From Chitinophaga pinensis (GTDB taxonomy: Bacteria > Bacteroidota > Bacteroidia > UKL13-3): DNA of 64,000 nucleotides. Numbering within the stretch: the first letter of the stretch is position 1; every line of letters starts with the position of its first letter. The notes beneath the pieces are model-generated. The model searched no databases and was not told the origin of the DNA. It was given only the letters and a program-made list of their open reading frames with translations. This document shows, piece by piece, positions 1 through 42,200 of the stretch. The stretch spans positions 40,501-104,500 of the forward strand of contig CALRNX020000012.1 in assembly GCA_943369665.1 (NCBI GenBank). Reading direction: 5' to 3'. Position numbers and translations under genes: made by a program.

Positions 1-1
1 T

Positions 2-142
2 ATAAACAGACTTCAAGACACCTTTAATTTTAAAGTCAATTGTTCAGGACACGCAGACCTAAATAAGTTACTTGACTTATGCAACTCCTCAATTCCTAAC
101 AAGAAATATAGAAATAAATTTAGACTTTGGCATGACAACTAA
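2..142 (+). CDS. 3' end of an upstream cassette ORF (partial, hypothetical protein)
   Basis: Open frame from the window edge to TAA at 140-142, 13 nt before attC-0. Only 46 codons are visible and they carry no recognisable motif. Confidence 0.3.
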   Translation: MNRLQDTFNFKVNCSGHADLNKLLDLCNSSIPNKKYRNKFRLWHDN

Positions 143-154
143 GAGAAAAACTAC

Positions 155-285
155 TGGTAACACTCCTCTTGCGCTATTGCCGTTAAAGTGCTAAAATGAA
201 ATTTATATTTACGCATAATATTTTATCTTGGTTGACAGATTATCTTACGCAAACGGCAACAGCGCAAGGCGTGGAACCGTTATGC
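155..285 (+). repeat. attC-like site 0 (subfamily B)
   Basis: 131 nt. Starts TGGTAAC and ends GTTATGC. Inner arms CTTGCGCTATTGCCGTT / AACGGCAACAGCGCAAG are complementary with 1 mismatch. Confidence 0.75.
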
Positions 286-337
286 CCAATGTCAAAATCC
301 TTCGTAAAAATAGTACAATTTTTGCTATATTGCAGTA

Positions 338-868
338 GTGAAACGGAAAATAGAAATTGGTCTAGACTTCATTATAGACAAGCTAACTAACTCAATTGAA
401 AACGTTGTGACTGGAGACAGTTTTGCAACCGATGTTTCTATTTTGACTCAACAAGACCTAAAAAACATTACCAAGAAAAATGGATGGCTATTTGACTGGA
501 AGTCAGAATTTAAAAATCCTCTTCGTGACACTTATAAATTAACCATAGTAAATAACTCGACTATTATTCAAGGCTTAATCAGCCTAGAAATTAAACCAGA
601 GCATATTTATATGCATCTTATAGAAAACGCACCGTTCAATAAGGGCAAAGACAAAGTATATGCAGGTGTAGCTGGAAACCTTGTTGCATTTGCTTGTAAA
701 TTATCTTTTCAACGTGGACATCAGGGAAACATATCATTTATATCAAAGACACAATTGATTGAGCACTATCAAAAGACTCTTGGAGCAAGGCATTTTGGTG
801 GACGTTTAATGATCATTGAGACAAAAGATGCACTTCAACTTATTAACAAGTACTTTCAAAATTATTAG
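338..868 (+). CDS. GNAT-fold acetyltransferase-like protein (cassette 1, gene 1)
   Basis: 176-aa ORF with a GTG start. The C-terminal half reads like the GNAT acetyl-CoA motif A region (VYAGVAGNLVAFACKLSFQRGHQG). No signal peptide. Confidence 0.55.
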   Translation: MKRKIEIGLDFIIDKLTNSIENVVTGDSFATDVSILTQQDLKNITKKNGWLFDWKSEFKNPLRDTYKLTIVNNSTIIQGLISLEIKPEHIYMHLIENAPFNKGKDKVYAGVAGNLVAFACKLSFQRGHQGNISFISKTQLIEHYQKTLGARHFGGRLMIIETKDALQLINKYFQNY

Positions 869-870
869 AT

Positions 871-1035
871 ATGAAAAGCAAATTAGTAGAATTAGAGGTT
901 GACTTCATTGGCGGACAAAATGGACTGACAGCTCAAGAAGAAAAAGCATTGAGTGAATACTTCGCTAAAAAGAAACAAATTGCTTTTAAACGGGCAAAGA
1001 CAAAAGTCTCTAAACGCACAAATGTGACAGCTTAG
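871..1035 (+). CDS. Small 54-aa protein with a basic C-terminus (cassette 1, gene 2)
   Basis: ATG lies 2 nt after the stop of the upstream ORF and TAG is at 1033-1035. Translation: MKSKLVELEVDFIGGQNGLTAQEEKALSEYFAKKKQIAFKRAKTKVSKRTNVTA. It is not in the ORF track because it is shorter than 60 aa. Confidence 0.4.
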   Translation: MKSKLVELEVDFIGGQNGLTAQEEKALSEYFAKKKQIAFKRAKTKVSKRTNVTA

Positions 1036-1059
1036 AAACGTCAACAAAGAAAGCACTGG

Positions 1060-1239
1060 GCATAACACACGCCTGCCGCTATTGGCGCTAACTCGCTAAA
1101 TTGTAGTTATCGTTTACGTATTTTACCCATTTTGGCAAGACAAATAAGTGCTTCGTTCCCTTGAGGTTCGCTTTTTGTATGCGTGGCAAACGAAAAGCGA
1201 ACTTTTCTGTATAATTGTTTCGCATAATAAATGTTAGCA
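1060..1239 (+). repeat. attC-like site 1 (atypical, 180 nt)
   Basis: Starts GCATAAC and ends GTTAGCA. The interior differs from the other sites and has its own hairpin (GTTCGCTTTT...AAAAGCGAAC). Both ends show 12/13 complementarity to the neighbouring cassette ends. Confidence 0.55.
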
Positions 1240-1264
1240 CCAATTTTAAAACGACACGACAACA

Positions 1265-1659
1265 ATGAAAAACTGGGACAGGACAGGAAAAATTAAGGCT
1301 ATTATTCTTGGAATTTTAGCATTACCAAATTTACTAATGCCAATCGGTGCAACAGGACAACAAGGACTTGCAATGATTTTAATGCCTTTGATTTTTGGAA
1401 GCATTTCAATTCCTTTAATCGCAAGGTTCAACGCTGGACTTGGACGAGAGATTATAAAACCGACTTGGAATGACAACCCACTTACAATGAAACTTTTCAT
1501 TTTGGCTCATTTTTCTTCCTGACAGTTGGGTTAAGTATGCTTGTTGGGACAGGAATTAAATTTCAAACTCTTAGCTTTTTTGGACTGACAGCAATTTCGT
1601 TCGGACTTGGAATATCGATAGGTATTTGGCTGACACTAAAATGGACAAAATCAAAATAA
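1265..1659 (+). pseudogene. Frameshifted small multi-pass membrane protein (cassette 2)
   Basis: The 85-aa ORF (1265..1522) is hydrophobic. An overlapping frame, open from 1474 to TAA at 1657-1659, continues with two more hydrophobic helices (HFGSFFFLTVGLSMLVGTG...GLGISIGIWLTLKWTKSK). The frames must join between 1474 and 1522 in a T-rich stretch. Confidence 0.45.
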
Positions 1660-1720
1660 TGCTTATGGACTTTTATCGCTTAGTCATTATTACATATTGC
1701 AATGACAGACAAAAAACTGG

Positions 1721-1852
1721 TGCTAACAACACCTACAAGAAATTGGCGGTTCAGTGGTTAAATGAAGCTTTATGCTTCGTATCAAGTTCGTTACTGTCAG
1801 ACAGTTTTCGTCTCCGAAATCGCCAACTTCTTGTAGCTGCAAACCGTTAGGC
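1721..1852 (+). repeat. attC-like site 2 (subfamily A)
   Basis: 132 nt, TGCTAAC ... GTTAGGC. Arms CTACAAGAAATTGGCG / CGCCAACTTCTTGTAG have 1 mismatch. Confidence 0.75.
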
Positions 1853-1877
1853 GCAATTATAATACCCCGACAAACAC

Positions 1878-2921
1878 ATGAGAAAAAAAGAGACTGTCCT
1901 TATAGTACTTTCTATATTTTCATTAGGACTGAATTTATTATTTAGTTCTGGAACGAATCCCTGGCCTGTGATAACATTGTCTTTACTTGCAATGCTTTAT
2001 CTGTTCTTCAGTTTCGCTATTTTGAATAATATTGACCTTAAGAGAATTTTCAAGAAAGAGCCGTATGTAGAAGTAAGCAAAATAAAAATTGCTGGGGCAA
2101 TACTTATTGGACTTGCTCTTTCTTTGACATTAATTGGCATACTCTTTAGATTTAAATATTGGCCAAATTCTTCATTTATTTTAGAAACTGGTCTTGGTGG
2201 ATTATTGCTTGTGACAATCATAGGATTCATTAAATATCCGAGGACAGAATCTGACTATTTTATAAACATCTTTAGACGGATTGTTATTGTTGGTGGACTT
2301 GGTTTACTCTTTATGGTTGTACCTCAGAATACTTGGGTTGCGATTAAATATCGAAATCATCCCCAATGTTCAGACGCATTAAAAAAATTATTAGTCAACC
2401 CTTATAAGACAGAGCTTTGGGACGATTTAGAGTCTGAAAGAAAAAGCATGGAATACACGTGTACTCAAGAAAACATTTCTACGACAAGGAAAATTGAAAA
2501 TGGCGATACTATTCGATGTTCGATTTTATATGACAACCCAAGTATTGTTCACATAAAACAATTTAATTCCAATAAACTTATAGAACAGCAGTTTATAATT
2601 GATCCACATGGAGACACGACATTTGATCCTCAACTGTTTTATTGTAACGATTATAGCCGACTCTTTGCTTTTCTACCTTTACTATCTCATTGGAAAAAGG
2701 ACTTTGTTTATAAGGACGCTAATCTTCTTCTTTATCATTATGAGACCAATCCTAATGTTCCCTTTGACACTGTCTTTTATGGACAAATTCGTAACGAGAG
2801 TATAATATCACTTGAGAAAAGAGATACACATAACCTCATAAGTAGAATACATACTAAAGACAATGAAACAGGTATTTCAGAAGTTTACTTCTCCAGAATC
2901 AGTGACCCGACCGTAAAATAA
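1878..2921 (+). CDS. Hypothetical membrane protein: N-terminal multi-TM region plus a ~190-aa soluble C-terminal domain (cassette 3)
   Basis: 347-aa ORF with about five hydrophobic helices in the first 160 aa. The stop lies 5 nt before attC-3. Confidence 0.7.
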   Translation: MRKKETVLIVLSIFSLGLNLLFSSGTNPWPVITLSLLAMLYLFFSFAILNNIDLKRIFKKEPYVEVSKIKIAGAILIGLALSLTLIGILFRFKYWPNSSFILETGLGGLLLVTIIGFIKYPRTESDYFINIFRRIVIVGGLGLLFMVVPQNTWVAIKYRNHPQCSDALKKLLVNPYKTELWDDLESERKSMEYTCTQENISTTRKIENGDTIRCSILYDNPSIVHIKQFNSNKLIEQQFIIDPHGDTTFDPQLFYCNDYSRLFAFLPLLSHWKKDFVYKDANLLLYHYETNPNVPFDTVFYGQIRNESIISLEKRDTHNLISRIHTKDNETGISEVYFSRISDPTVK

Positions 2922-2925
2922 CTAG

Positions 2926-3057
2926 GCATAACAGCAGTCTTGCGCCATTGCCGTTATCATCTTAAATTCAAGCTTTCGTTTCGCATTTATTTTTTATCTT
3001 GGTTGACAGATTTTCGTTCCGTAATCGGCAACTGCGCAAGGCCGTGGAACGTTATGC
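2926..3057 (+). repeat. attC-like site 3 (subfamily B)
   Basis: 132 nt. Layout: GCATAAC-agcagt-CTTGCGCCATTGCCG ... CGGCAACTGCGCAAG-gccgtggaac-GTTATGC. The R boxes are perfect, there is an unpaired spacer, and the L boxes carry a bulge. Confidence 0.8.
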
Positions 3058-3068
3058 CCAATTATAAA

Positions 3069-3686
3069 ATGACACGTAGGACACTTATATGCTTGACTAT
3101 TTTACTTTCTGCTTGCGGACAGAAAAAGCCATCCGAAAATAGTGTTTTGACAAGCAATCAAATTAAAGTTTCGGCTGACAGTTTAGCCACACATTCAGAC
3201 AAAAATGTAATTGAACATGTACGCACACCCTATTTCGTTGGTGACATCAATAATGACAACAAAGCGGATAGCGCTTATGTTATTTACGAGCGTAGTGTAA
3301 AAGCCGACAGCACAATAGAAATAGAATGTGTTAATAAAAATTGTGAGGTCACTATCAAGTTTACTGGCAATATTCCAGACCTTGTCATTGACCAATCTTT
3401 AGGCATTTACATTCAAAAGACAGAAGACTTAAATAATGACAAAGCCAATGAAATAATATTATTTTCAGAATGGTTTGAAGGTTATTGGTATCGCGTTTAT
3501 GTGTGGACTTTTAATAATGGAAAGTGGAACGAGATTGCAAGAACAAAAGCATTTCTATCCGAAGACAAAGACTACGAAAACAGAATTGTTAAAACCAAAT
3601 CGCAATTTTATTTAGAGGGTGACGGTTGGGACGACAGTAAGGGTGGAGTGACCGAAAGAAGTATTAAAATAAGGATAGAAAAATAA
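3069..3686 (+). CDS. Lipoprotein with FG-GAP/VCBS-like Asp-rich motifs (cassette 4)
   Basis: MTRRTLICLTILLSAC lipobox. Motifs DINNDNKAD and DLNNDKANE. The ORF-track start at 2940 lies inside attC-3, so I chose the ATG at 3069 (an in-frame ATG at 3054 is also possible). Confidence 0.7.
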   Translation: MTRRTLICLTILLSACGQKKPSENSVLTSNQIKVSADSLATHSDKNVIEHVRTPYFVGDINNDNKADSAYVIYERSVKADSTIEIECVNKNCEVTIKFTGNIPDLVIDQSLGIYIQKTEDLNNDKANEIILFSEWFEGYWYRVYVWTFNNGKWNEIARTKAFLSEDKDYENRIVKTKSQFYLEGDGWDDSKGGVTERSIKIRIEK

Positions 3687-3690
3687 CTGG

Positions 3691-3823
3691 GCATAACAGC
3701 ACCTTGCCAAAAGCGGGGCGAAAGTGCGAATATGAACAGTAAAGCATTTAATAAACATTAGTGGTAGCTTGACAGGTTGGTGCTTCGAAAGCCCCGCCTT
3801 CGGCAAGCTTCAGAACGTTATAT
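3691..3823 (+). repeat. attC-like site 4 (subfamily A, divergent interior)
   Basis: 133 nt, GCATAAC ... GTTATAT. Arms CTTGCCAAAAGCGGGGC / GCCCCGCCTTCGGCAAG have 2 mismatches. Confidence 0.75.
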
Positions 3824-3851
3824 GCAAGCATACACAAAACCACAAAAAAAG

Positions 3852-5165
3852 ATGACCTATAAACTAAAATCAATTTGCATTGCAATTCTCATTAGTTGCT
3901 CATTGCAAATAAAAGGGCAGAACGTAGTCTGGACAGATGTTGATAATTTTTGGGCTGCATACGACAAAATTATTCAGACCAAAGACTCTGTTACGCAGTA
4001 TAAGCTACTTGAAGATTTATATTTTTCTAAAGCAACGGAAGGCTTGATTGCTATGAGGCAAGCAAGGAACTATACTGCAAAGGACTATTTAGATGCTATT
4101 AATAATTACCCGAAATTTTGGAATTCTATTCGAAAAAGCACATTAAGAGCTAATGAGTTTTCAAAAGAATTAAACACTGGAATTGAGAAATTACGTCAAA
4201 TATATCCAGAACTAAATCCAGTTAAAATATACTTTACCATTGGAGCAATGAGAAGTAACGGAACAACTTTAGACAGTCTTGTTCTCATAGGTGCTGAGTT
4301 GGCGATGACAGATAAAAATACCGTATCTGATGAACTTTTACCCGATAATTTTAGAATTGGGAGGCGGAAATATTTTGACAGTAACCCAATTAATACTTTG
4401 GTTTTGCTTAATATTCACGAGTATGTTCATACACAACAAAAACCTTGGGTAGATAACTTACTTTCTTATGTGATCAGAGAGGGTGTTGCTGAATACGTTT
4501 CTGTAAAAGCAATGAATGTTCCTTCGGCTGCACCTGCAATTGAATTTGGGAAGAAAAATAACGAAAAAGTAAGGGCAAAATTTGAGCAAGAAATGTTTTA
4601 TATTAACAATCAGAGTAATTGGCTTTGGAGTGACTCTCCAAATGAATTTGGGGTTAGAGATTTAGGATATTATATCGGCTACCAAATGTGTGAGAATTAT
4701 TATAACCAAGCAGAAAACAAATCTTTAGCCATCAAAAAAATGATAGAATTGGATTATACCAACGAGGCTGAAATAGAAGACTTTGTGGCAAAATCTAATT
4801 TTTTCTCAAAGCCACTCAACGAACTCTACCAAGACTTTGAAAAGAAACGTCCGAAGGTTGTTGGCATAACGCAATTTAAAAACAAAAGCAAGAAAGTTAA
4901 TTCCAATATCAAAGAAATAACTATTGAATTTTCAGAGCCTTTAAACGGACACAACACTGGAGTTGATTTTGGAGAATTAGGGCAAAGTGCTTTTCCTAAA
5001 AATGATGGAACAAAAAGATATTGGTCAAACGGTAATAAGGCTTGGACCATTACAGTAGACTTAGAACCTAACAAAAAGTATCAACTGCTGATTACCAATA
5101 ATTTTAGAACTCAAAACGGAATGCCTTTGAAACCCTACTTAATTGAGTTTCAAACTGGAAAATAA
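3852..5165 (+). CDS. Secreted putative Zn-dependent peptidase (HExxH) with a C-terminal Ig-like domain (cassette 5)
   Basis: Signal peptide MTYKLKSICIAILISCSLQIKGQ. HEYVH is at nt 4415-4429. The C-terminal ~100 aa look like a beta-sandwich (ITIEFSEPLN...). The ORF-track start at 3777 lies inside attC-4. Confidence 0.65.
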   Translation: MTYKLKSICIAILISCSLQIKGQNVVWTDVDNFWAAYDKIIQTKDSVTQYKLLEDLYFSKATEGLIAMRQARNYTAKDYLDAINNYPKFWNSIRKSTLRANEFSKELNTGIEKLRQIYPELNPVKIYFTIGAMRSNGTTLDSLVLIGAELAMTDKNTVSDELLPDNFRIGRRKYFDSNPINTLVLLNIHEYVHTQQKPWVDNLLSYVIREGVAEYVSVKAMNVPSAAPAIEFGKKNNEKVRAKFEQEMFYINNQSNWLWSDSPNEFGVRDLGYYIGYQMCENYYNQAENKSLAIKKMIELDYTNEAEIEDFVAKSNFFSKPLNELYQDFEKKRPKVVGITQFKNKSKKVNSNIKEITIEFSEPLNGHNTGVDFGELGQSAFPKNDGTKRYWSNGNKAWTITVDLEPNKKYQLLITNNFRTQNGMPLKPYLIEFQTGK

Positions 5166-5175
5166 AAATGCCTGC

Positions 5176-5306
5176 ACATAACACGGGTTTGGCAAAAGTG
5201 GCGGTTCAGTGCTCCGCAGACAGATTTGTGGTAGCCGAAAGTTCAGTTCTCAGATTCAACATTTATGGAGAAAATCGCCACTTTTGCCAAGCCCGAAACG
5301 TTAGCG
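5176..5306 (+). repeat. attC-like site 5 (subfamily A, divergent interior)
   Basis: 131 nt, ACATAAC ... GTTAGCG. Arms GGGTTTGGCAAAAGTGGCG / CGCCACTTTTGCCAAGCCC have 1 mismatch. Confidence 0.75.
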
Positions 5307-5384
5307 CCAATTTTTAATTAACCACATTGATTTAAATACAAATTCTATTCAAGACAATTTTAAAACAAATAAATTTCTACCAAA

Positions 5385-5780
5385 ATGTTAAACCAAATTA
5401 AGATCACCATACTCATAATTAGTGCGACTTTGATAATGAGTTGTAAACATTCAAAACCTAAAACCCCGGATTTTATTGAGACAAAGAAGCTTGAACAAGA
5501 ATTTGGTACATTAATTCAGGCAGACAACATAAACATAAATGGAAGTGAGAATGACGAAAACTCCGTGCTTGAAATAAATATTATAAATGGCAAAAGTCTT
5601 TCAACAATTGAAGACGAACAAAGAGCTCTTGCCCATTCATTAGCGAGAATTGTGAAAGTCAACCTTAAGGATTCAAATCAGTTCGATACCTATATGGTAA
5701 AGTTCGGGAAGAAGTCTGAAGGAGAAAGCTTAGCAATTGAGACTTATACCCGATTCGACTTTAAACTGAACGAACTGTAG
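5385..5780 (+). CDS. Small lipoprotein, hypothetical (cassette 6)
   Basis: 131 aa with the lipobox LIMSC. Confidence 0.65.
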   Translation: MLNQIKITILIISATLIMSCKHSKPKTPDFIETKKLEQEFGTLIQADNININGSENDENSVLEINIINGKSLSTIEDEQRALAHSLARIVKVNLKDSNQFDTYMVKFGKKSEGESLAIETYTRFDFKLNEL

Positions 5781-5813
5781 CAAATAGAAAACTCATCAAG
5801 AAAGTAAAACTGT

Positions 5814-5945
5814 TGCTGACAGTGGCCTTGAACCATTACCGTTAACTTACTAAAATTCAATATTTCGTTTCGCATTTGTTTTATCTTAGCAGGACAATTT
5901 AACGTTACGTATACGGCAACAGCGCAAGGTCGCAATCCGTTATGG
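5814..5945 (+). repeat. attC-like site 6 (subfamily B, decayed)
   Basis: 132 nt. The inverse core reads TGCTGAC (GAC, not AAC) and the core is GTTATGG. The left L arm CTTGAACCATTACCGTT is only partly complementary to ACGGCAACAGCGCAAG. Confidence 0.55.
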
Positions 5946-5986
5946 ACAATTTTAATGACCAAAAGTTCAACAAATAAAAAAGACAG

Positions 5987-6487
5987 ATGATAAAAAAGGC
6001 ATTATTTCTTCTTACAATAATTTTTAGTTTAAATGTTTCTGGACAAAACAACGGAAAAGTGGTTATGACGTCATTTATCCCAAAGTCAAAAGCCTACGAC
6101 ATTTATTATCCGAAAGGTTTTTATTTGAAAGAAGACAATGAAGGAATTGTTACAATCAATGACTCAACTTCAAAACTAAATATTTCAATCAGTTCATATT
6201 CCATTAACAAAGGAATGAATGACAAAAAATTAATTGAGCAGCTTAATGGTTTCGTGAAAAGTTACTATAAGAAAGAAATAAAAGAGGAAGATTGGAATAG
6301 TTATAAAACGAAATTTGAGATTTTGGTAGAGTCTAAATTTTCTGTCGACCAAACAAATTGGGTTTGGTATGGTATTGTAGACAAACAAAGATTAGTTACA
6401 ATTTCGGTTAACAAGGAAAATGTCATCGAAAAAGAGGAGCTAAATCTTGTTCAATATATGATTAACAATTTAATAATTAATGAATAG
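5987..6487 (+). CDS. Secreted hypothetical protein (cassette 7)
   Basis: 166 aa with signal peptide MIKKALFLLTIIFSLNVSGQ. Confidence 0.65.
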   Translation: MIKKALFLLTIIFSLNVSGQNNGKVVMTSFIPKSKAYDIYYPKGFYLKEDNEGIVTINDSTSKLNISISSYSINKGMNDKKLIEQLNGFVKSYYKKEIKEEDWNSYKTKFEILVESKFSVDQTNWVWYGIVDKQRLVTISVNKENVIEKEELNLVQYMINNLIINE

Positions 6488-6516
6488 GTTTGTCAGAAAT
6501 GATAATAAAAAACTAC

Positions 6517-6647
6517 ATATAACGGGTGCTTGGCAAAAAGCGGTTTCAGTGCTTAAATGAAGCTTTGTGCTTCGTATCAAGTTCAGTGCTGGCAGACAGT
6601 TTAGTGCTTCGGAATCCGCTTCTTCGCCAAGCGCCCAAACGTTATAG
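6517..6647 (+). repeat. attC-like site 7 (subfamily A)
   Basis: 131 nt, ATATAAC ... GTTATAG. Arms GGGTGCTTGGCAAAAAGCGG / CCGCTTCTTCGCCAAGCGCCC pair with bulges. Confidence 0.8.
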
Positions 6648-6667
6648 GCAACCAAAATGCCTACACT

Positions 6668-7264
6668 ATGAAATCAAAAACATATAAATTAATCGGAGCG
6701 ATTTGTATAACCGCAATTACACTGACTATGATTCATTTTTCAACGGGGCTTTTTACTCGATATAATTTTATAACAGCAAGACTCGACATAATGAACAAAA
6801 ATTATCGAATTGTTCATTATGGAGAGAGAAAGGTTACCGATAAAATTGCCGAGGAAATTAGCCCTGAATTTGGTTTTAAATATGAAGGCACGAATTGCAG
6901 CGTGACTACTCCACTTATTAATGGCATTGACAGCTATAACAAAATTATGACACGACAATTGGATAAAGTATACGGATCGGACTGGTTCTTTGACTTTGAA
7001 GACCGAACAGACTCCCTATTCCGAGAATCGAGAGTCGACACTATAAGACAAATTATCTCATCACAAGAAGATTATAAAGAGCTAGAAAAGGTGTTCGACA
7101 AGTTATATCATGGGACAAGGAAACTAACAGTTTGGGTTTTAATTCATGAAGACAATGGAGATAACGTTCGTGTGTGTGAAAGATTTGGAGACACCGCAAT
7201 TCGGGTTTTTGACTATTACCATGTTGACCCTTATTCATTAAAAGTATCTACTGTCCGTTATTGA
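6668..7264 (+). CDS. N-terminally membrane-anchored hypothetical protein (cassette 8)
   Basis: 198 aa with a single N-terminal hydrophobic helix (LIGAICITAITLTMIHF). Confidence 0.65.
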   Translation: MKSKTYKLIGAICITAITLTMIHFSTGLFTRYNFITARLDIMNKNYRIVHYGERKVTDKIAEEISPEFGFKYEGTNCSVTTPLINGIDSYNKIMTRQLDKVYGSDWFFDFEDRTDSLFRESRVDTIRQIISSQEDYKELEKVFDKLYHGTRKLTVWVLIHEDNGDNVRVCERFGDTAIRVFDYYHVDPYSLKVSTVRY

Positions 7265-7292
7265 GACACTGTCGACTCAGAAAATCGGCTGC

Positions 7293-7425
7293 CTATAACA
7301 GCAATCTTGCGCAATTGCCGTTATTATCCTTAAATACAGTATTTCGTTTCGCTTTTATTTTTTATCTTGGTAGACAGATTTTCGTTCCGTAATCGGCAAC
7401 TGCGCAAGGTTGCGGAACGTTAGCG
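7293..7425 (+). repeat. attC-like site 8 (subfamily B)
   Basis: 133 nt, CTATAAC ... GTTAGCG. Arms CTTGCGCAATTGCCGTT / AATCGGCAACTGCGCAAG. Confidence 0.8.
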
Positions 7426-7444
7426 GTCAGCTTAAAAAACGACA

Positions 7445-8029
7445 ATGAAACAAATAATCTACATATTGACAATTTTAATATTAACAGCTTGCGGACAAAC
7501 CAACACTGAACAGAATTCTAATATAAGTATAGAAACTAAGGCTGAACAAGTTTTGGACACAACCTATTCAGACAATAAACAAACTGATAAAAAAGCCACG
7601 ACAGACGAAAAAGAGACCGAGGAGTATAGAAAACAATCTTTAAGTGGATTTGAAAAAGCAACATTATATAAATTGACCGATACAATTACGGCAGACTTTA
7701 ACGGAGACGGATTTTTAGACAAAGCGATTTATAAAAAAGAAATCGAAACATCGGGAATAATCATCATACACGGAAAGACAAATGAGCGAGTAAAAATTGG
7801 TTTTGGAAAACAGTTTGCACATTTGACAGAATTCAATTGGGTTGACTATTGGGGACTTGTTGAAGACAAAGAAACAAGTGAAACAACGTTTACAGAAGAC
7901 GGAGACGTTTTGGACAGTAAAACAGTTAAGCTCAAAAATCCTTCAATAGCTTTGGGTAAAGACGAAGTTGGTGGCGGACTAATAACATACAGAAATGGAG
8001 AATATGAATGGATACACCAAACTTGTTGA
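7445..8029 (+). CDS. Lipoprotein with an FG-GAP/VCBS-like motif (cassette 9)
   Basis: Lipobox ILTAC and motif DFNGDGFLD. 194 aa. Confidence 0.7.
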   Translation: MKQIIYILTILILTACGQTNTEQNSNISIETKAEQVLDTTYSDNKQTDKKATTDEKETEEYRKQSLSGFEKATLYKLTDTITADFNGDGFLDKAIYKKEIETSGIIIIHGKTNERVKIGFGKQFAHLTEFNWVDYWGLVEDKETSETTFTEDGDVLDSKTVKLKNPSIALGKDEVGGGLITYRNGEYEWIHQTC

Positions 8030-8044
8030 CAAAGAAAGCCGAAC

Positions 8045-8176
8045 CGCTAACAGGCGTTTGGCAAAAAAGCGGTTTCAGTGCTTAAATGAAGCTTTGTGCT
8101 TCGTATCAAGTTCAGTGCTGGCTGACTGTTTAGTGCTTCGAAATCCGCTTCTTCGCAAAGCGGCAAACCCTTATAG
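8045..8176 (+). repeat. attC-like site 9 (subfamily A, mutated core)
   Basis: 132 nt, CGCTAAC ... CTTATAG. The first core base is C instead of G. The interior is near-identical to sites 7 and 10. Confidence 0.7.
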
Positions 8177-8204
8177 GTAAGCGTAAAAGACGACACAACG
8201 ACAA

Positions 8205-8729
8205 ATGAACATTGACTTTGACAACATATTTCAACACGTAATTCCAATGGACGACTTTGGACGAAAATGGCGTTTTACGGAAGAGAAGTTTGACGTACTA
8301 CCCGACCAACATCTTGACCTGCTAAAACCGTTAGACAAAGAAGCTGCAAAATTCTTGTGGGACTATATCGCAAAGACAAATTTGCACAACGACATCCCTT
8401 TTAAAAAAGACTTCTTTCGGACTATTGACAAAGCAAAAATTTTAGATGGTAACGAAAAAGAAATTAAAAAGTGGCTTTACCATCGTGGACTTCCTTTTGA
8501 CAAGCCCGTTTTTCTATCTTGGGACGAGACAGACGCAATGATTGTTCCTTGGAAACTTTTAATAAAATACTTCGACAGCTTTTATTATGGTTCATCGGAC
8601 GACCTAACTGTAATAGACCAAAGTTTAAACTGGGCGTTAGTATTTTATCACGAGGACGAAATTTATTTTGGAACTAATAAGGACTTTAAACCAAACGAAA
8701 CATTTGCAGAAGTTAACTTTATTTGGTAA
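8205..8729 (+). CDS. Cytoplasmic hypothetical protein (cassette 10)
   Basis: 174 aa with no signal peptide and an acidic, aromatic-rich composition. No motif I can name. Confidence 0.65.
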   Translation: MNIDFDNIFQHVIPMDDFGRKWRFTEEKFDVLPDQHLDLLKPLDKEAAKFLWDYIAKTNLHNDIPFKKDFFRTIDKAKILDGNEKEIKKWLYHRGLPFDKPVFLSWDETDAMIVPWKLLIKYFDSFYYGSSDDLTVIDQSLNWALVFYHEDEIYFGTNKDFKPNETFAEVNFIW

Positions 8730-8753
8730 CAACATAGTTTACAGAACGCCTAC

Positions 8754-8877
8754 CTATAACAGGCGTTTGGCAAAAAAGCGGGCTCAGTGCTTAAATGAGG
8801 CTTTGTGCTTCGTATCAAGTTCAGTGCTGGTTGACAGTTTTGTGCTTCGAAATCCGTCAAGCGCCAAGATGTTATGA
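8754..8877 (+). repeat. attC-like site 10 (subfamily A, shortened right arm)
   Basis: 124 nt, CTATAAC ... GTTATGA. It shares the conserved interior CAGTGCTTAAATGA.GCTTTGTGCTTCGTATCAAGTTCAGTGCTGG. Confidence 0.75.
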
Positions 8878-8896
8878 CTAATCCTAAAGACAATAA

Positions 8897-9502
8897 ATGA
8901 CAATTAAGCTTTTCCACCTATTTATTTTTGTTACGTTCATTTTCAGCTGTGACAATGACAGTGCTATTAAACAAAAAAGGCAGCCCTCAAATGATACAGT
9001 ATCATCCGTTACTTTGGATGAGGAAAACGAATCGCACTTTGAAGAAAACGACTGTGTTTTTGATACTAGTACATATAAATTTACAACAGAAGCGCTAAAA
9101 AAATATCGCGACAACATCAAATTCGCTTGGGACAACAAAGACAACAGTGCGACAACCATACTTGATAATGGTGACACCTTAAATATAAGTATTGGTGGTT
9201 GTAATCACTTTGGGTACTCCGCGACATTGTATTCTTCAATTCATTTCGACAACACAAAAGAGCTTATCAAAAAAGCACATTGGCTTGCGAAGACTTTTTT
9301 TGATAATGGATTTGATACTAAATATGATGAGTGCATCAGAAAAGGACAATATGAGCCTAGTTATAATCACGACACGATTAACATTAAATCCTTTGACATA
9401 ATTGATCGAGACACGTCAGAAACAAATTTGATATATGAAGGCTTCACATTTTTCAGAACAGGCGACAGGACAAAAATAGTAATCAGTGGTTACATCAACT
9501 GA
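8897..9502 (+). CDS. Lipoprotein, hypothetical (last cassette)
   Basis: 201 aa with the lipobox FIFSC. No attC-like site follows it. Confidence 0.65.
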   Translation: MTIKLFHLFIFVTFIFSCDNDSAIKQKRQPSNDTVSSVTLDEENESHFEENDCVFDTSTYKFTTEALKKYRDNIKFAWDNKDNSATTILDNGDTLNISIGGCNHFGYSATLYSSIHFDNTKELIKKAHWLAKTFFDNGFDTKYDECIRKGQYEPSYNHDTINIKSFDIIDRDTSETNLIYEGFTFFRTGDRTKIVISGYIN

Positions 9503-9564
9503 AAGAGGTACTACGCTAGCGGTTTTGCCGCAATTCGTCACGGGCTCTTGGGAAGGTTAACTCC

Positions 9565-10689
9565 CTAAACAAACAAATCACTCGCAATCCCATCGGCCAT
9601 AATCCTAGCATGTCTTGTGAGTTTGTAAAAATGGCCGTTTTGTTCGATCAAACCTTCCTGCATTTTTTGTTGCAATCCGGTAGTAATTGTTTTGGCAAAT
9701 GGAGCGCCAAACTCTTTTTCAAACCATTGCAGGTCCAATCCCCAAATGGTACGGAGGCTTGTCATGATGTATTCGTTGATCCTGTTTTCAATGGTCAGTT
9801 CTTCAACTTCCGAAACAAGAGTTCCGCTTTCAATTCCTTTTAAGTAAAGATTGTTGTTGGCCATATTCCAGCTCCGTGTTTGTTTGTTAAACGAATGAGC
9901 CGATGGCCCGACACCCAGGTATATTTTGTTTTTCCAGTAGTTGGTATTGTGCACCGCGTATTGGCCATTGCGTGCAAAATTGGAAATCTCGTATTGCTCA
10001 AATCTATTTGCTTCCAATGTGTTTACCAGCATTTCAAATTGTTCACCGGCTTGTTCTTCACTTGGAGCAATGACTTTGTGTTTTTTGATCAACGTATCCA
10101 AAGCTGTTTTAGGCTCTACCGTTAAACAATACGAAGAAATATGGTTGAGGTTTAAGTCCAAAGCCGTTTGCAAATTGGCTTGCCATTTTTCATTGGTTAA
10201 GGTAGGCGAACCATAGATCAGGTCAATCGTAATATTAGGGAATCCTGCATCCTGAACAAGCTTGATCACATGAAACGCTTCGCTTGCAGTATGCGCCCTG
10301 TTCATCCATTTGAGTTCTTCATCAAAAAAAGACTGAACACCAATACTGAAACGGTTGACAGGCGATTGTTTGAGTTCCATAATTTTTGAGGGGATCAGGT
10401 CATCAGGATTGGCTTCCAACGTAATTTCTGCAGTTGGTGATACCTTAAAGTGTTTGTATAACGCTTCAAACAATTGACCAAGTTGTTGTTCCGTTAACAA
10501 CGAGGGTGTTCCTCCTCCAATATAAATCGACTCAATTGTTTCGTTAAGCACATATTGTTTGCGGGTGATCAGTTCGTTCACAATGGCGTTCACCATTTCC
10601 TGTTTGTACGAAAGCTGGGTGCTGAAATGAAAATTGCAATAATAACATGCCTGTTTACAAAAAGGAATATGAATGTAAATACCTGCCAT
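9565..10689 (-). CDS. hemW: Radical SAM heme chaperone HemW (HemN-like, oxygen-independent coproporphyrinogen oxidase family)
   Basis: The N-terminus IHIPFCKQACYYCNFH carries the CxxxCxxC radical SAM motif. Length is 374 aa. Confidence 0.85.
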   Translation of the reverse strand: MAGIYIHIPFCKQACYYCNFHFSTQLSYKQEMVNAIVNELITRKQYVLNETIESIYIGGGTPSLLTEQQLGQLFEALYKHFKVSPTAEITLEANPDDLIPSKIMELKQSPVNRFSIGVQSFFDEELKWMNRAHTASEAFHVIKLVQDAGFPNITIDLIYGSPTLTNEKWQANLQTALDLNLNHISSYCLTVEPKTALDTLIKKHKVIAPSEEQAGEQFEMLVNTLEANRFEQYEISNFARNGQYAVHNTNYWKNKIYLGVGPSAHSFNKQTRSWNMANNNLYLKGIESGTLVSEVEELTIENRINEYIMTSLRTIWGLDLQWFEKEFGAPFAKTITTGLQQKMQEGLIEQNGHFYKLTRHARIMADGIASDLFV

Positions 10690-10722: not shown

Positions 10723-12522
10723 ATGGTGCGAAAGTATTTTAAATTAATTGTTTTACTGCTACTTGTTGGGCAATTGTATGCCCAGCAACGTCCGATATAC
10801 TTGCACGTGAACTGGCCGGTGTCCAAAGAAGGAGCATTCGTTCAAAAGAATGTAAGCTATCAATCGTTTTGTGCCGACAGTGCTTTTTTGAATGCCGAGT
10901 TGTCTAAAATTTTGCTGGGTTGTTATAAATTATCTTTTGTTCAGGCACAGTTTACCTCTTTTCAGTCAATAGGGGATTCGATTATTGCCACCCTTGCATT
11001 GGGGAATGCATACAAGTGGATCGGTATCCGTGCAGGCAACGCTTCCGAAGATATTTTAAGTGGAGCAGGTTTTCGCAATGCCCAGTTCAACAACAAGCCT
11101 TTTAACCCGGATCAATTTTCCAAACGCGTTGAACGTTTATTGCAATACCTGGAAAACAATGGTTACCCGTTTGCCGAGGTCCGTTTGGATTCTGTGCAGG
11201 CCGATTCAATGTTTGTTTCCGCATCGTTAAACCTTACGTTAAACAACCTCATTGTTTTCGACACCCTTGATATAATCGGGGATGCCAAGATCAAAAAATG
11301 GTATTTGTACAAATATCTCGGACTAAAACCTGGAAGCAATTACAATGAGTCTTCCATTAAACAAGCCAATAGTCGCCTGAGCCAGTTACCCTTTTTAAAA
11401 ACAACCGGTGGTGCACGGGTATATTTTTTTGGAAACAAAGCAATGCCGATCCTCTCGTTGGATAACCGCAAATCGAGCAGTATTGATGGGGTAGTGGGCT
11501 TTGCACCCAATACGGTTCAAAACCCGGGAGCCAGTGAAAAGTTGCTGATCACGGGTGAAGCCAATCTTAAACTGCAGAATTTATTTGGAAGCGGAAAAAG
11601 CTTCGAATTGAACTATCGAAGTTTTTTGGGAAACTCTCAGGATTTAAAGATCAAGTTTATGTATCCCTACATTTTTAGGTCCAATATTGCATTCGATTAT
11701 GAGCTCAATTTGTTAAAACAAGATACCACCTACCTGGATATCCGGAATGAGATCGGCTTTCAATACCGTTTTGTGGGCAATGATTATTTTAAAGTGTATT
11801 ACAGCATTCAAAACACTTCTTTGATCACCATTGATACCAATGCAATTAAAGCAACCCGCAAGCTCCCGGCAGCGTCCGATATTACCAATAATACTTACGG
11901 TGCGGCTTTTCGCATCCAGCGCTTCGATTATTTTTTTAACCCCCGTAAAGGGTATACCGTAGATATGAATATGGGTTTTGGTGTGAAAGTGATCAACCGC
12001 AATCCTACCATTGAGGCCTTGCGCATATTGGATGTGAGTGGCGAAACATACGGCATTTACGATTCCATTCAATTAAGCTATTTCCAAACGCGTTTTCAGG
12101 GAATGGCCGAATATTATATTCCATTGTTTCAACGGGCAACAGTCAGGTTGCAGGCAATGGGCGGACATATAGCCTCCGAAAATTTATTTGTGAACGAGTT
12201 GTTCAGAATTGGTGGAATAAGAACCTTGAAAGGATTTGATGAACAGTCTATATTCGCGAGCTCCTACGCAATTGGTAATTTGGAGTTGAGGTATTTGTTA
12301 CAGGAAAATTCCAATGTACTTTTGTTTTGGAACGGGGCCTATTACCGCAATATGGTTTATAATCCGGTTGTAACGGATAAGCCATTCGGGTTTGGGGCAG
12401 GATTTAATTTTGAAACCAATACAGGAGTGTTTTCAATTTTTTATGCTGTGGGAAAAGAAAAAAATAACCCTGTGAATTTTAACCGGGCAAAAGTGCATTT
12501 TGGGTTTGTAAATTATTTTTAA
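10723..12522 (+). CDS. BamA/TamA (Omp85) family outer-membrane protein
   Basis: Signal peptide, a POTRA-like N-terminal part, and a C-terminal beta-barrel with alternating aromatic pattern ending HFGFVNYF. Confidence 0.65.
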   Translation: MVRKYFKLIVLLLLVGQLYAQQRPIYLHVNWPVSKEGAFVQKNVSYQSFCADSAFLNAELSKILLGCYKLSFVQAQFTSFQSIGDSIIATLALGNAYKWIGIRAGNASEDILSGAGFRNAQFNNKPFNPDQFSKRVERLLQYLENNGYPFAEVRLDSVQADSMFVSASLNLTLNNLIVFDTLDIIGDAKIKKWYLYKYLGLKPGSNYNESSIKQANSRLSQLPFLKTTGGARVYFFGNKAMPILSLDNRKSSSIDGVVGFAPNTVQNPGASEKLLITGEANLKLQNLFGSGKSFELNYRSFLGNSQDLKIKFMYPYIFRSNIAFDYELNLLKQDTTYLDIRNEIGFQYRFVGNDYFKVYYSIQNTSLITIDTNAIKATRKLPAASDITNNTYGAAFRIQRFDYFFNPRKGYTVDMNMGFGVKVINRNPTIEALRILDVSGETYGIYDSIQLSYFQTRFQGMAEYYIPLFQRATVRLQAMGGHIASENLFVNELFRIGGIRTLKGFDEQSIFASSYAIGNLELRYLLQENSNVLLFWNGAYYRNMVYNPVVTDKPFGFGAGFNFETNTGVFSIFYAVGKEKNNPVNFNRAKVHFGFVNYF

Positions 12523-39287: not shown

Positions 39288-42200
39288 TTAATCTTTAAGA
39301 ATTTTTACTACACGTGTTTCGTTGTTCAAAATTACTTTAACAAAGAAAAGCCCTTTTTTCAAATTTTCAAGCATGTCCAGGGTAATATTATTTAAACCCT
39401 CGGATATGCTATATTGATGGCTTAAAATTACTTTGCCTTGCATATCAATGAGCGTAATGGTTGCCATTTCTGTAACATCAGATGGGATAATAAGGTGGAT
39501 ATTATCATTAAATGGATTAGGGTAAACCACTACTTGTTCAAGTTTGGTACTTAATGCCTTATTGAAATCAACTTTTACCACCTGTGAGGTTGCAGATGAG
39601 CCATCTATATCCACCGAGATCATACGGTAGTATATCGTTGATGCATTATTCATGTCAAGTTGCGCATCCAAATGAGTGAGTTGGTATTCGGTAAGCGTTG
39701 CGCTGTTGCCTTTTGCTTTTACAGTACCAATTTGCTTAAATGATTTTCCATCAGCTGATGCCTGAATGATAAATTTATGGGCATTTATTTCTGATGCGGT
39801 TGACCAGTAAACGATCACGTTCTTTGAGCTGCGTTGTGCAATGAACTTGGTGAGTGTAACAGGAACGGGACTGGCTAAATTTTCATCAGCACCCATATAT
39901 GGCCGCACTGAATTTCTTGCTTCCCCATCAAAGTCGGTAGTATAATTAAGCACCGGTGTTCCCCCGAGATCAAAGTCTCCAATTGAAGCCCCACTCAGAT
40001 GCAAATCGGCAGCAGCAGTATTGCTAAAGTTTACGTTTTTGCTGATCGAGTTTGCGTCACCAAGTGATAATGTTTTCCATGATGCCAGATCACCGGTTGT
40101 TGTTCCCCATAAGGTTAAGTTTGCCGGGTTTACACTATAGAAATTGTTGTAGTCATTGATCGAACTGATCCATGATGAATCCGGGCGTGTTCCTTCGTTC
40201 CCGATTGCATAATGCAAGCCAGGTGACGATACCGTATTTATGAATAAATTATTCTGCATCACAATTGGCTGGTAAGATTGGGTTATCAAACTATTTTCTC
40301 CACGGTGGAAAGCAAATGATGAAACAGGTTGTCCACTTGTATTGCCAATATGTATGGAGTTATAGAAATAGAAATGAACATTTCCATTAGCACCAGTTAC
40401 CATAACACCATTCAGCTGCACGGAATCAGATGGGTTGTTGGTAAGCGAAATCATATTGTTATGGATTGCAGTTGCCGAATCTAAGAAGCGCATATATAAT
40501 CCGTTAGCTGTACCGCGTATGGTATTTCCACTGGCAAGAGAATGGTTTTTGATATTATAGATGATGTTATGATGGATACTTCCAGGGAAATTGGATGCTG
40601 TGACACCAGAAACGTTTGTTGCAGCAGTAGTGTTGGTTCCCGTTATTTCATAGATGGTATTATAGCCAACTTCACTTGTTGGGCCATATCCTCCAGCAGG
40701 GAAACAATAAATACCCTGTGCCACAATACTTCCTCCTGTATAAGCAGCCGCAGTCGAATTAGAGCTTAAATTGGATATTCTATTGTGTAAAATATGACAA
40801 GACGGATATGGAGATCCTGAAGAAAAACTTATTCCCCTGATAACCGCTCCGGTTGCAATATTTGAATTGGTCATGTTGGCAACCCTGTTATGCTCAATGG
40901 TTACAAGTGTATTCACTAGTGCATTGGTATTACTGATACCAACGATTGCTGCCGTACCGGCATTGGTGATACTATTTGCATTAACAGAGTCTCCAATCAA
41001 ATTGTAGTTCACGAGGGCATTTCCGCGGGTAACCACAATCCCTGTAACAGCTCCGCCTCCCGTATTTGTTTTTGTAAAGTTGCGAACAATGTTCCGAGAA
41101 ACGGTTGAAACCGAAAGAGAATCGAATGATGCTGAAATACCAATAAATGCGGTTGTTCCATTATGAACCCACGGTGTTCCTCCCGCATTGATCGTTGTAC
41201 CCCCAATGGTATTATGCGTAATGGTATTGTAATTAGACGCTGCAGCAAATAAAATTGCAGTTTGTGCAGTTGTAGGGATCGTAGCGGAGTTATAATAAAT
41301 ATTGTTGTTGCCGATATACCAGTTTCCACCATTTCCCGTTGCACTTATATTGATCGCACTGGTTGTAAAATTGAATATTTCATTGCTGTCAATTTTGTTG
41401 TAATGATTTGAAGCAGCAGCATTTCCACTACTGTAGATCGCATTAGCAGGAATTCCGGCTGCGGTTGACAGGTCGCGGATTTTATTACTGATAATTGTAT
41501 TGCTATCATTACCCAAAGCTTTGGTTGTCGACCCAATAAGAATGGTGCCACTTGTAGACACTGTATTTGCACTTTCAATTGTCAAATTCCTCAAGGTATT
41601 GTATCGGGCATCGTTGGTAAAGCTAATGGCAGGACCAGTTGTAGCTGTTGTACGGGTATTCCGTATGGTCCATTCACTAGTTGTGCCTCCGTCTGGTCTG
41701 CCATCAAACATTAAATTGTCAACACCATCAAAAGCAATAAGTGCACCTGCACTACCTGCATCTCCTGCGGTTACACGTGCTGTAACCGATGCAGCCGGAC
41801 GAATGGTTACTTTCCATGGTGTTCCATTGGTCATAATTTGGTTGAAATAAATAGGGAATACTTCTCCTACTGTTCCATCATAATCACTTTGTAATTCAAA
41901 CAGTACATCACTAACAAGTTCTGAATTGTTGAGCAAATTGGCTACAACCGTTAAGCTGGTATATGTACCTGTTGCACCTATGGTAAAATTACCACCTAGA
42001 GGGGCTAGTGTAGGTGTTAATGGATTGTTTATGTCTTCATCGGCTCCCATGTACGGATACACAGATGCCCGGGCTTCTCCATCAATATCGGTAGGAATGC
42101 TGCCAATATAACGTCCTGCAAAACTATTGTTGCCAATTGTTGGTGATGTTAAATGAAGATCGGTAGAGGAAACAAAGGCTACGGAAGAGTTTATAGATGA

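Follow-up and report, generated by a model that had tools for sequence, protein, structure and literature searches.

A gene-cassette array of short units, all but the last followed by a long imperfect palindrome, occupies the first 9.5 kb of a 64,000-nucleotide stretch of a Bacteroidota genome deposited as Chitinophaga pinensis (contig CALRNX020000012.1, positions 40,501 to 104,500 of the forward strand; hereafter, the window). Direct-repeat analysis and reading of the sequence located 11 palindromes (sites 1 to 11) in window 1-9502, one per open reading frame (ORF) unit and all on the plus strand. Nine are 131-133 nt long, one is 124 nt and one is 180 nt. An earlier interpretation made from the letters alone (the sequence-only reading) had proposed an integron-type cassette array with eleven same-orientation palindromes following plus-strand ORFs, and our coordinates and lengths agree with it. 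Site coordinates given here include both terminal 7-mers, nnnTAAC on the left and GTTAnnn on the right. About 4-61 nt separate an ORF stop from its site, and 11-78 nt separate a site from the next start. A covariance model trained on 10 window sites (R1) recovered just those 10 training sites in the 64-kb window, all on the plus strand, and neither R1 nor the direct-repeat analysis found a further copy on either strand of 9000-64000. Beyond the window, R1 retrieved ~100 extra copies in other genomes, with a top score of 142 bits. We interpret the region as the distal part, comprising at least 12 units, of a chromosomal cassette array belonging to an integron-like platform that is widespread in Bacteroidota, and we assign this reading a probability of about 0.8.

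The ten alignable sites form one family with a mean column identity of 68%, divided into subfamily A (CTTGCGCnATTGCCG...CGGCAACnGCGCAAG) and subfamily B (TTGGCAAAAnGCGG...); eight of the 11 sites are intact and three (sites 2, 7 and 11) are degenerate. The window opens inside a cassette: the 3' end of an ORF (1..142; 46 codons, frame 2) is truncated at position 1, indicating that the array extends leftwards. Site 1 (155..285; 131 nt, subfamily A) starts 12 nt past its stop and scores 127 bits with R1, with fold z-scores of -3.2 on the plus and -4.7 on the minus strand. It is followed by a two-ORF cassette (338..1035, with ORFs at 338-868, 176 aa, and 871-1035, 54 aa) without a family match, both genes of which are also present on a Logan contig. 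Site 2 (1060..1239; 180 nt) is decayed, with a family-like 5' half and a disrupted 3' arm, and reaches 18 bits against R1 with filters off. The next ORF encodes a small membrane protein and, from our reading of the sequence, is apparently frameshifted (1265..1659, as 1265-1522 and 1537-1659). Site 3 (1721..1852; 132 nt, subfamily B-like; 126 bits, minus-strand fold z -4.9) precedes an ORF for a 347-aa multi-pass membrane protein without a family match (1878..2921), an identical copy of which is carried by Logan contig L001. The Logan contigs of run ERR9580569 that match window proteins are fragmented and break within sites, and positions 1-59 had no exact DNA match in the genome and metagenome contig collections. 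Site 4 (2926..3057; 132 nt, subfamily A, 120 bits), the example chosen in the sequence-only reading, coincides with inverted repeats I20 and I21 and is followed by an ORF of 205 aa with a lipoprotein-type signal (…LLSAC; 3069..3686).

Site 5 (3691..3823; 133 nt, subfamily B-like, 113 bits) leads to an ORF for a 437-aa protein with a signal peptide and GldB_lipo/DUF2268-like plus Ig-like domains (3852..5165; PF25594, E = 1.2e-8). Site 6 (5176..5306; 131 nt, subfamily B, 94 bits, fold z -5.2, inverted repeat I2) has a near-perfect 23-bp stem and is followed by an ORF of 131 aa with a lipoprotein-type signal (5385..5780). Site 7 (5814..5945; 132 nt, subfamily A) still scores 107 bits by sequence, and it has decayed: its left box reads TGCTGAC (TGAC for TAAC), its stem contains four mismatches, and it lacks a stable fold (z +1.4). 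An ORF of 166 aa with a signal peptide (5987..6487), site 8 (6517..6647; 131 nt, subfamily B, 135 bits, 92% identity to site 10), an ORF of 198 aa with an N-terminal membrane anchor (6668..7264), site 9 (7293..7425; 133 nt, subfamily A, 127 bits, 90% identity to site 4 over 94 nt) and an ORF of 194 aa with a lipoprotein-type signal (7445..8029) come next; the features of these three products, as those of the 205-aa and 131-aa proteins, were read from the sequence. In site 10 (8045..8176; 132 nt, subfamily B, 135 bits), the right box is CTTATAG, with the crossover base changed from G to C. The following ORF (8205..8729; 174 aa) has no signal peptide and matches DUF2947 (PF11163, E = 2e-6), and site 11 (8754..8877; 124 nt, subfamily B, 114 bits) has lost 8 nt from its 3' arm and folds no better than shuffled sequences.

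The final unit (8897..9502) encodes a 201-aa protein that has a lipoprotein-type signal and matches no Pfam family. The sequence-only reading held that it has no site, and an unfiltered R1 search of 9300-9800 indeed found no site remnant past this last ORF, which may be either a cassette minus its site or the first gene outside the array. A convergent hemN-like radical SAM gene (9565..10689, minus strand; PF04055, PF06969) forms the right boundary. The three decayed sites, the frameshifted ORF at 1265-1659 and the siteless last unit suggest that this distal end is old and partly fossilised. Two further details resemble remnants of an old rearrangement or of cassette fusion: site 2 holds an extra left-box-like ATTGGCGCTAAC (1079-1090) that is the exact complement of the site 6 right box GTTAGCGCCAAT (5300-5311), and the left box of site 7 (5814-5820) is a poor fit to its own cassette start.

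In the plus-strand consensus, the 5' arm consists of nnnTAAC, one unpaired A, a variable 5-6-bp helix and a 15-bp helix with a central mismatch or wobble. The terminal part that follows (~68 nt) is conserved in sequence rather than variable (TTGACAG/CAGACAG...TTT, CGnAAT), and the 3' arm contains the return strands of both helices, 4-5 unpaired bases (RRAAC) and GTTAnnn. The sole constant asymmetry lies beside the R box, where 1 nt (A) in the 5' arm faces 4-5 nt (RRAAC) in the 3' arm. The sites carry attC-type boxes (left ...AAC, right GTT...) at the base of a structure-conserved hairpin. The 'unpaired spacer' of the sequence-only reading is mostly a 5-6-bp covarying helix, and what it took for a bulged base in the L box is the central mismatch or wobble; the aligned sites contain no conserved single-base bulge. 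Compensatory double changes were found in 16 out of 19 stem pairs among the ten window sites (RNAalifold) and in all 19 among 99 family members. In those 99 members, 91.5% of the cells are paired; the figure falls to 64.5% after column shuffling and to 28-46% if the partner is displaced by 1-3 columns. The 19-bp stem is, therefore, kept by selection on pairing. In canonical attC sites, extrahelical bases occur near L'' on the arm facing the cleaved AAC, and the central spacer is unpaired and roughly symmetric (PMC5027507). Neither feature is found here, where the spacer is mostly paired. The TTGACAG/CAGACAG-TTT motif keeps a fixed position in the terminal structure in both subfamilies and across genera (e.g. 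3000-3015, 6590-6605 and 8830-8845), and in subfamily A it follows TATCTTGG, which nearly matches the -7 promoter box of Bacteroidota. Modelled pairs include 88 G.T wobbles on the top strand and 38 on the bottom strand, and the bottom-strand hairpin is on average 2.2 kcal/mol more stable, as computed with RNA parameters only.

In integrons, whatever follows the G of a right box is already part of the next cassette, so that a left box is expected to be complementary to the right box one site earlier and not to that of its own site. Across 63 adjacent pairs from the window and its relatives, the left box of site i was complementary to the right box of site i-1 at 6.0 out of 8 variable positions, and 54 of the 63 pairs reached at least 6 matches; the corresponding values were 2.96 out of 8 for a site's own right box and 2.75 out of 8 for random pairs. 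In the window, for instance, GGGCATAAC of site 5 corresponds to GTTATGCCC of site 4, and GCTGCCTATAAC of site 9 to GTTATAGGCAAC of site 8. A second test came from the complete genome of the Bacteroidetes bacterium UKL13-3 (CP012155.1), which holds two copies of one cassette with 100% identity: the recombinase gene is directly followed by one of them as the first unit (locus L016), and the other lies inside a second array (L013). The identity runs from GTTATAAG (GTTATAAGTAATGC) via the ORF, the left box and the whole site body to ...GAACGTTA (...GCAGAACGTTA). A cassette is thereby delimited as TTA...ORF...site body...G, and its crossover is assigned to the right-hand GTTA. The two tests are independent and show that the units are true mobile cassettes, bearing out the integron-type array proposed by the sequence-only reading. 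An inverted model, with a cassette formed by a site and its downstream ORF, a left-box crossover and a recombinase to the right, was also considered; its motive was the extra unpaired bases on the plus-strand 3' arm and the occurrence of some arrays that end in a siteless ORF. It was rejected, being ruled out by the UKL13-3 duplicate, which joins an ORF to its downstream site body, and by the position of the recombinase in relatives.

The same site family makes arrays in about 30 Bacteroidota genomes. A single subfamily-A pattern retrieved 37 loci from the genome collection, nearly all in Bacteroidota metagenome-assembled genomes, plus UKL13-3 and an Aquirufa genome, and the ~100 sites detected by R1 in the related loci always formed same-strand arrays. 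A phmmer search with IntI1 identified tyrosine recombinases in five loci. In L016, L027, L038 and L040, the recombinase gene lies at the left-box end of the array and on the same strand. In L017 (5300-7021, CP012155.1), a shorter paralogue (269 aa, without the N-terminal domain described below, 36% identical to P0090) is divergent from a lone site with one ORF behind it. A second search started from the protein and was free of site-selection bias. In L041, from the complete genome of Flavobacterium sp. N2270 (CP110005.1), at least 11 R1 sites lie downstream of the recombinase gene, each preceded by a small ORF without a Pfam match; L051 and L052 have three sites downstream of the recombinase; L045 has one, after a 6-kb helicase cassette; and two contigs stop ~200-300 nt past the recombinase gene, as expected at a repeat array. 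Long contigs of other relatives (L020, L029) carry arrays without an adjacent recombinase. The recombinase gene is co-oriented with the cassettes in L016, L027, L038, L040, L041, L045 and L051, and not divergent from them as intI is, and no Pc-type promoter was identified by a search for the Bacteroidota promoter box. The sequence-only reading had placed the recombinase and its attI to the left of the first unit, and it is on that side that they are found in relatives. In L041, ~9 tandem copies of GGAGTATGTA(T/C) occupy positions 11060-11150, directly after the recombinase stop and upstream of the attI region.

Three loci (L044, L045 and L046) share an identical recombinase gene and identical upstream genes. 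They remain identical until ...GGACATATAAACAAGTTA (...ATAAACAAGTTA) and then differ, with the divergence exactly at ...ATAAACAAG|TTA (the bar marking the crossover), the position of the attI crossover. Past it, in the 10 kb downstream of the recombinase, L044 carries RND/CzcA-type efflux and P-type ATPase genes, L045 a DEAD helicase and DNA methylases, and L046 OmpA/ZorA/EH-signature (Zorya-like) genes; in another lineage, L050 (3354-5386) carries AAA_15/AAA_21 ATPases. Judging from these differences in cargo, the platform also carries large defence and resistance cassettes. The attI motif, TATAAAC(A/T)AG|TTA, recurs in L041, L051 and L005 and, in looser form, in L016, L027 and L038; a small palindrome centred on a CCAAATTGG-like sequence precedes it. 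An attI beside the recombinase gene, with entry at G|TT, is found in relatives and is not visible in the window. The first cassettes after attI in L045 (10500-10830), L046 (11050-11380) and L051 (11130-11400) share a conserved ~200-nt leader despite their different cargo (…GCCAACGCTTCGGCAAAAT.AAAAGAG.TGCAA…CACATTTG.TTTTGCCCC), which may be a promoter or a regulatory RNA.

The recombinases that head these arrays belong to a large family, with thousands of matches at E < 1e-20, the top 120 being 66-80% identical. It is named 'site-specific tyrosine recombinase/integron integrase' at NCBI and 'XerD' at JGI. The best NCBIfam model was NF040815 (XerA-type 'tyrosine recombinase/integron integrase'; 177-227 bits, cut-off 220). 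The integron integrase model TIGR02249 matched at 4-179 and 237-315 only, skipping 180-236 (164-208 bits, cut-off 265). Among solved structures, XerA (4A8E, E = 3.6e-43) aligned end to end and VchIntIA (2A3V) aligned in two pieces, leaving chain residues 200-243 without a counterpart. BLASTP against a hand-entered IntI1 sequence left a ~40-residue gap opposite residues 213-252. In an AlphaFold model (mean pLDDT 83), residues 256-271 form a short loop with beta bridges and there is no helix at the I2 position. The sequence-only reading had expected the IntI-specific extra domain (the I2 helix; intI_Cterm) in the recombinase; the enzymes heading arrays of the same site family in relatives lack it. 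The model also contains a confident extra N-terminal beta-beta-alpha-beta-beta-alpha domain (residues 1-58; about 65 aa in size), conserved in the family and without a Pfam match; the N-terminus of the family reads HxGxKRI...GARWS...WHxPD. The invariant residues fit the positions of the catalytic R, K, H-x-x-R, H and Y, so that the catalytic residues are apparently present by our own assignment from motifs, and a C-terminal SPFDDL resembles SPLDAL of IntI1. A fold search with the model was non-discriminating, with VchIntIA and XerA tied as best. On these comparisons, the family lies between IntI and archaeal XerA and is not a canonical IntI. As a speculation, the N-terminal domain together with the terminal-structure motif is a candidate for a replacement recognition mode.

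These observations can be joined into a model of cassette movement. A cassette comprises TTAnnnn..., one or more ORFs, ...nnnnTAAC, a ~115-nt site body and a G. In the excised circle, the cassette ends would pair to form an R box of ~11 bp at the base of a long hairpin, composed of a 21-22-bp stem and the conserved ~68-nt terminal part. A dedicated tyrosine recombinase would excise and re-insert cassettes with a crossover in the right-hand G|TTA, and new ones would enter at an attI-type site (…TATAAAC(A/T)AG|TTA) directly downstream of the recombinase gene. That gene, upstream of the array and on the cassette strand in relatives, would be expected here left of position 1. The bottom (window minus) strand would be cleaved at TAA|C while folded as a single strand, at the same position as in integrons (PMC5027507), and the R box and long helix of the folded strand may present two recombinase binding sites. 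One strand would be exchanged with attI or another site and then resolved by replication. The strong covariation between arms ~70 nt apart supports the folded form. A recombinase without the reader domain and sites without the landmarks that it reads would make a coherent pairing.

Several observations weigh against this interpretation. No tyrosine recombinase of any kind was found in the 64-kb window by phmmer and tblastn, the array exits the left edge, and the recombinase is linked to the window through site homology only; we infer that the array in this genome is served by the same recombinase family. With three of the 11 sites decayed and the last unit siteless, the array is perhaps inactive now. 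The strand asymmetries in wobble pairs and folding energy are weak and mixed, leaving single-strand folding and strand choice as putative steps of the model. The IntI1 query used in phmmer and BLASTP was a hand-entered sequence; the TIGR02249 and 2A3V comparisons are independent of it. Informative pairs of cassettes shared between genomes numbered only 2 among ~120 cassettes. One conflicting case is that of L005 and L030, which share a 96%-identical ORF module and differ in their site bodies. The shared stretch (L005:3500-4260 and L030:1696-2460) runs from G|TTAGCGG... to ...CCGCTAAC, and past the left box one site body is of subfamily A and the other B-like. The L005 module adjoins an attI-like sequence, with no recombinase within the 8-kb locus. 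As the modules match up to the left box and then have different site bodies, exchange at the left box also seems to occur, which the simple model does not predict.

Four other explanations were weighed against the proposed platform. Repetitive extragenic palindromes or miniature inverted-repeat transposable elements, or intergenic terminator or RNA elements, with no role in mobility, would account for intergenic imperfect palindromes with strong hairpin potential. Their probability is close to nil and the idea is already contradicted. Dispersal of this type, looked for as a possible refutation of the sequence-only reading, was not seen: the copies are clustered on one strand, one per ORF, in the window and ~35 loci, and are absent from the other 54 kb. 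Moreover, the end-complementarity rule holds, the 100% cassette duplicate is bounded in GTTA, contigs with an identical recombinase gene diverge at the adjacent G|TTA, and no Rfam family matches the sites. A different objection is that the array may be a fossil, equivalent to the clusters of attC sites lacking integron integrases (CALIN): assembled as proposed, it would have lost, or been separated from, its recombinase and would now be a set of inert accessory genes. The window does hold at least two sites and no tyrosine recombinase in 64 kb, sites 2, 7 and 11 are decayed, one ORF is frameshifted, the last unit is siteless, and recombinase-less arrays occur in the long contigs of relatives (L020, L029). 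However, eight sites are intact, with full stems and matching boxes, and the window opens mid-array, cut by its left edge, so the head may be out of view. In addition, the recombinase-less array L013 of UKL13-3 has evidently swapped a cassette with the platform elsewhere in its genome. We consider a fossil unlikely.

The remaining two explanations concern the enzyme. A host dimer resolvase or a close paralogue might have been hijacked at a dif-like site by small integrative elements, as in integrative mobile elements exploiting Xer (IMEX), CTX hairpins and Acinetobacter pdif modules. The recombinases are indeed closest to XerA in both structure and NF040815 comparisons, lack I2, bear the JGI name XerD and are common and about 65-70% conserved across genera, and folded single strands are open to use by Xer enzymes, as CTX phage demonstrates. 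Yet each ORF has one site, directly oriented, that is a 131-133-nt hairpin and not a 28-bp dif-like duplex; no such duplex (~28 bp, two 11-bp arms, 6-8-bp centre) was recognised in the site alignments. The recombinase gene has no conserved chromosomal neighbourhood across lineages, the variable region always lies immediately downstream of it, and the SPFDDL tail and TIGR02249 scores are IntI-like. Xer/dif exploitation is, on balance, improbable. So, to a similar degree, is a canonical integron with its I2-bearing IntI, attI and Pc just left of the window, with the Xer-like neighbours elsewhere having no part in cassette movement, which we hold to be quite improbable. The architecture, the AAC/GTT boxes, the G|TT crossover and the first-position insertion are all integron-like, the left flank is out of view, and reviews count Bacteroidota among integron phyla. 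Nevertheless, an I2-less recombinase lies directly upstream of the crossover in every visible head (L016, L027, L038, L040, L041, L045, L051/L052), no IntI-type ORF is present in any of ~45 loci, and IntegronFinder surveys of Bacteroidetes gave just In0 and, later, one complete integron (Salinibacter).

Having weighed these alternatives, we return to the integron-like platform and to what its array carries in this genome. Eight of the 12 ORFs encode products read from their N-termini as exported or membrane proteins (lipoprotein, signal-peptide or membrane). Pfam gave two family matches among the cassette ORFs, both weak (GldB_lipo/DUF2268-like and DUF2947), and searches of these ORFs with PADLOC/defence models gave no convincing match. 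The Bacteroidota-type TAnnTTTG box is absent upstream of every cassette ORF, with just the near-matches TATCTTGG within subfamily-A sites, and most of the promoterless cassettes are likely to be silent cargo. The G+C content is 0.33-0.38 in the array and 0.38-0.44 in the flank. To the right, Pfam recognised hemN, a POTRA protein, hemD, PorP/SprF, a gldK-like gene, gldL, gldM and gldN, and farther away lie trigger factor, relA/spoT, topoisomerase I and type IX secretion system (T9SS) cargo proteins. This flank is an ordinary Bacteroidota chromosome, as the sequence-only reading had it. It includes a 3768-aa ORF (39288-50594, minus strand) for a giant protein, secreted or at the surface, in which Pfam recognises just a C-terminal T9SS sorting domain; short in-frame repeats of 15/30 nt where the topoisomerase I gene encodes its C-terminal part (54328-54402); and TGGTTTG-type repeats near 61.0 kb (61023-61103).

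The closest known counterparts are the sedentary chromosomal integrons, such as the Vibrio cholerae superintegron with its ~125-133-nt VCR attC sites. Both systems have long one-strand arrays of short, promoterless ORFs, mostly of unknown function, with a long and mutually similar imperfect palindrome after each ORF. They also share AAC/GTT boxes, a G|TT crossover, a left box complementary to the cassette's own 5' end, insertion at an attI beside the recombinase gene, and defence systems among the cargo, here in relatives. In contrast, the recombinase considered here lacks I2, carries an additional N-terminal domain and is encoded on the cassette strand; the site arm that faces the AAC triplet has no extrahelical bases; the terminal structure keeps its sequence from genus to genus; and the host phylum is Bacteroidota. 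'Reverse-orientation' integrase integrons, described in Spirochaetota and others, likewise have the integrase on the cassette strand, but those integrases are reported with the IntI-specific domain (PMC9668308), which this family lacks. In CTX phage/XerCD and IMEX, an I2-less Xer recombinase acts on a folded single-stranded DNA hairpin that mimics a duplex core, in a single exchange resolved by replication (PMC7790495), a precedent that makes I2-less hairpin recombination plausible. The CTX system differs in that a phage genome enters the chromosomal dif via the host resolvase, with no array of ORFs and sites served by a dedicated recombinase and attI. Archaeal XerA (NF040815; best sequence matches 4A8E and 5HXY) has the same two-domain core without I2, but it acts in dimer resolution at dif, has no N-terminal extension and has no known cassette array. 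Acinetobacter pdif modules are likewise discrete gene modules between Xer-type sites; theirs are 28-bp duplexes in alternating orientation on plasmids, whereas those described here are 131-133-nt hairpins in direct orientation.

The additional domain I2 has been held to define IntI and to be necessary for its activity, according to the account of Messier and Roy (2001) given in PMC9668308. It is seen as the innovation that enabled recombination of folded single-stranded attC sites by reading their extrahelical bases (PMC7790495; PMC5027507), and the IntegronFinder paper states that I2-less recombinases next to attC sites 'are not IntI' (PMC4889954). IntegronFinder surveys of Bacteroidetes found In0 only, plus one complete integron in Salinibacter (PMC9024848), and Bacteroidota are listed among integron-bearing phyla without detail (PMC8618304; PMC9668308). 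The supplementary tables of IntegronFinder 2.0 contain nothing on Bacteroidetes, Flavobacterium or CP012155. The sequence-only reading had called the system essentially unexplored, and we found no description of arrays headed by I2-less recombinases in the searchable open-access literature, an earlier description elsewhere being possible. The sequence-only reading was correct on mechanism and polarity. The system is functionally integron-like, yet it lacks two defining features of integrons, namely the additional domain of IntI and the unpaired features of canonical attC sites, and its gene orientation also differs.

The array is of interest mainly for the light that its relatives shed on the recombinase. 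Cassette mobility has here a complete functional signature, which includes complementary ends, a first-position duplicate with 100% identity, and divergence at G|TTA between contigs whose recombinase genes are identical. This signature is tied to an I2-less recombinase and to sites without the canonical extrahelical layout, in a host phylum that is abundant in water, soil and guts. We give even odds to the broader proposal that Bacteroidota hold a widespread and currently active analogue of the integron, served by an I2-less recombinase intermediate between Xer and IntI and by folded sites without canonical extrahelical bases. As part of that proposal, the analogue may have persisted from a stage of integron evolution before I2, or may have solved the same problem independently. 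If it holds, I2 would not be required for cassette-type recombination, and a large reservoir of cassettes, including defence systems, would be invisible to tools that require intI_Cterm, so that current integron detection would overlook a whole class. In this genome the hidden mobile pool would comprise exported proteins; in relatives, it would comprise efflux, restriction-modification and Zorya-like systems. The proposed transition from Xer to IntI would then become directly testable through a natural I2-less enzyme in a cultured host, Flavobacterium sp. N2270.

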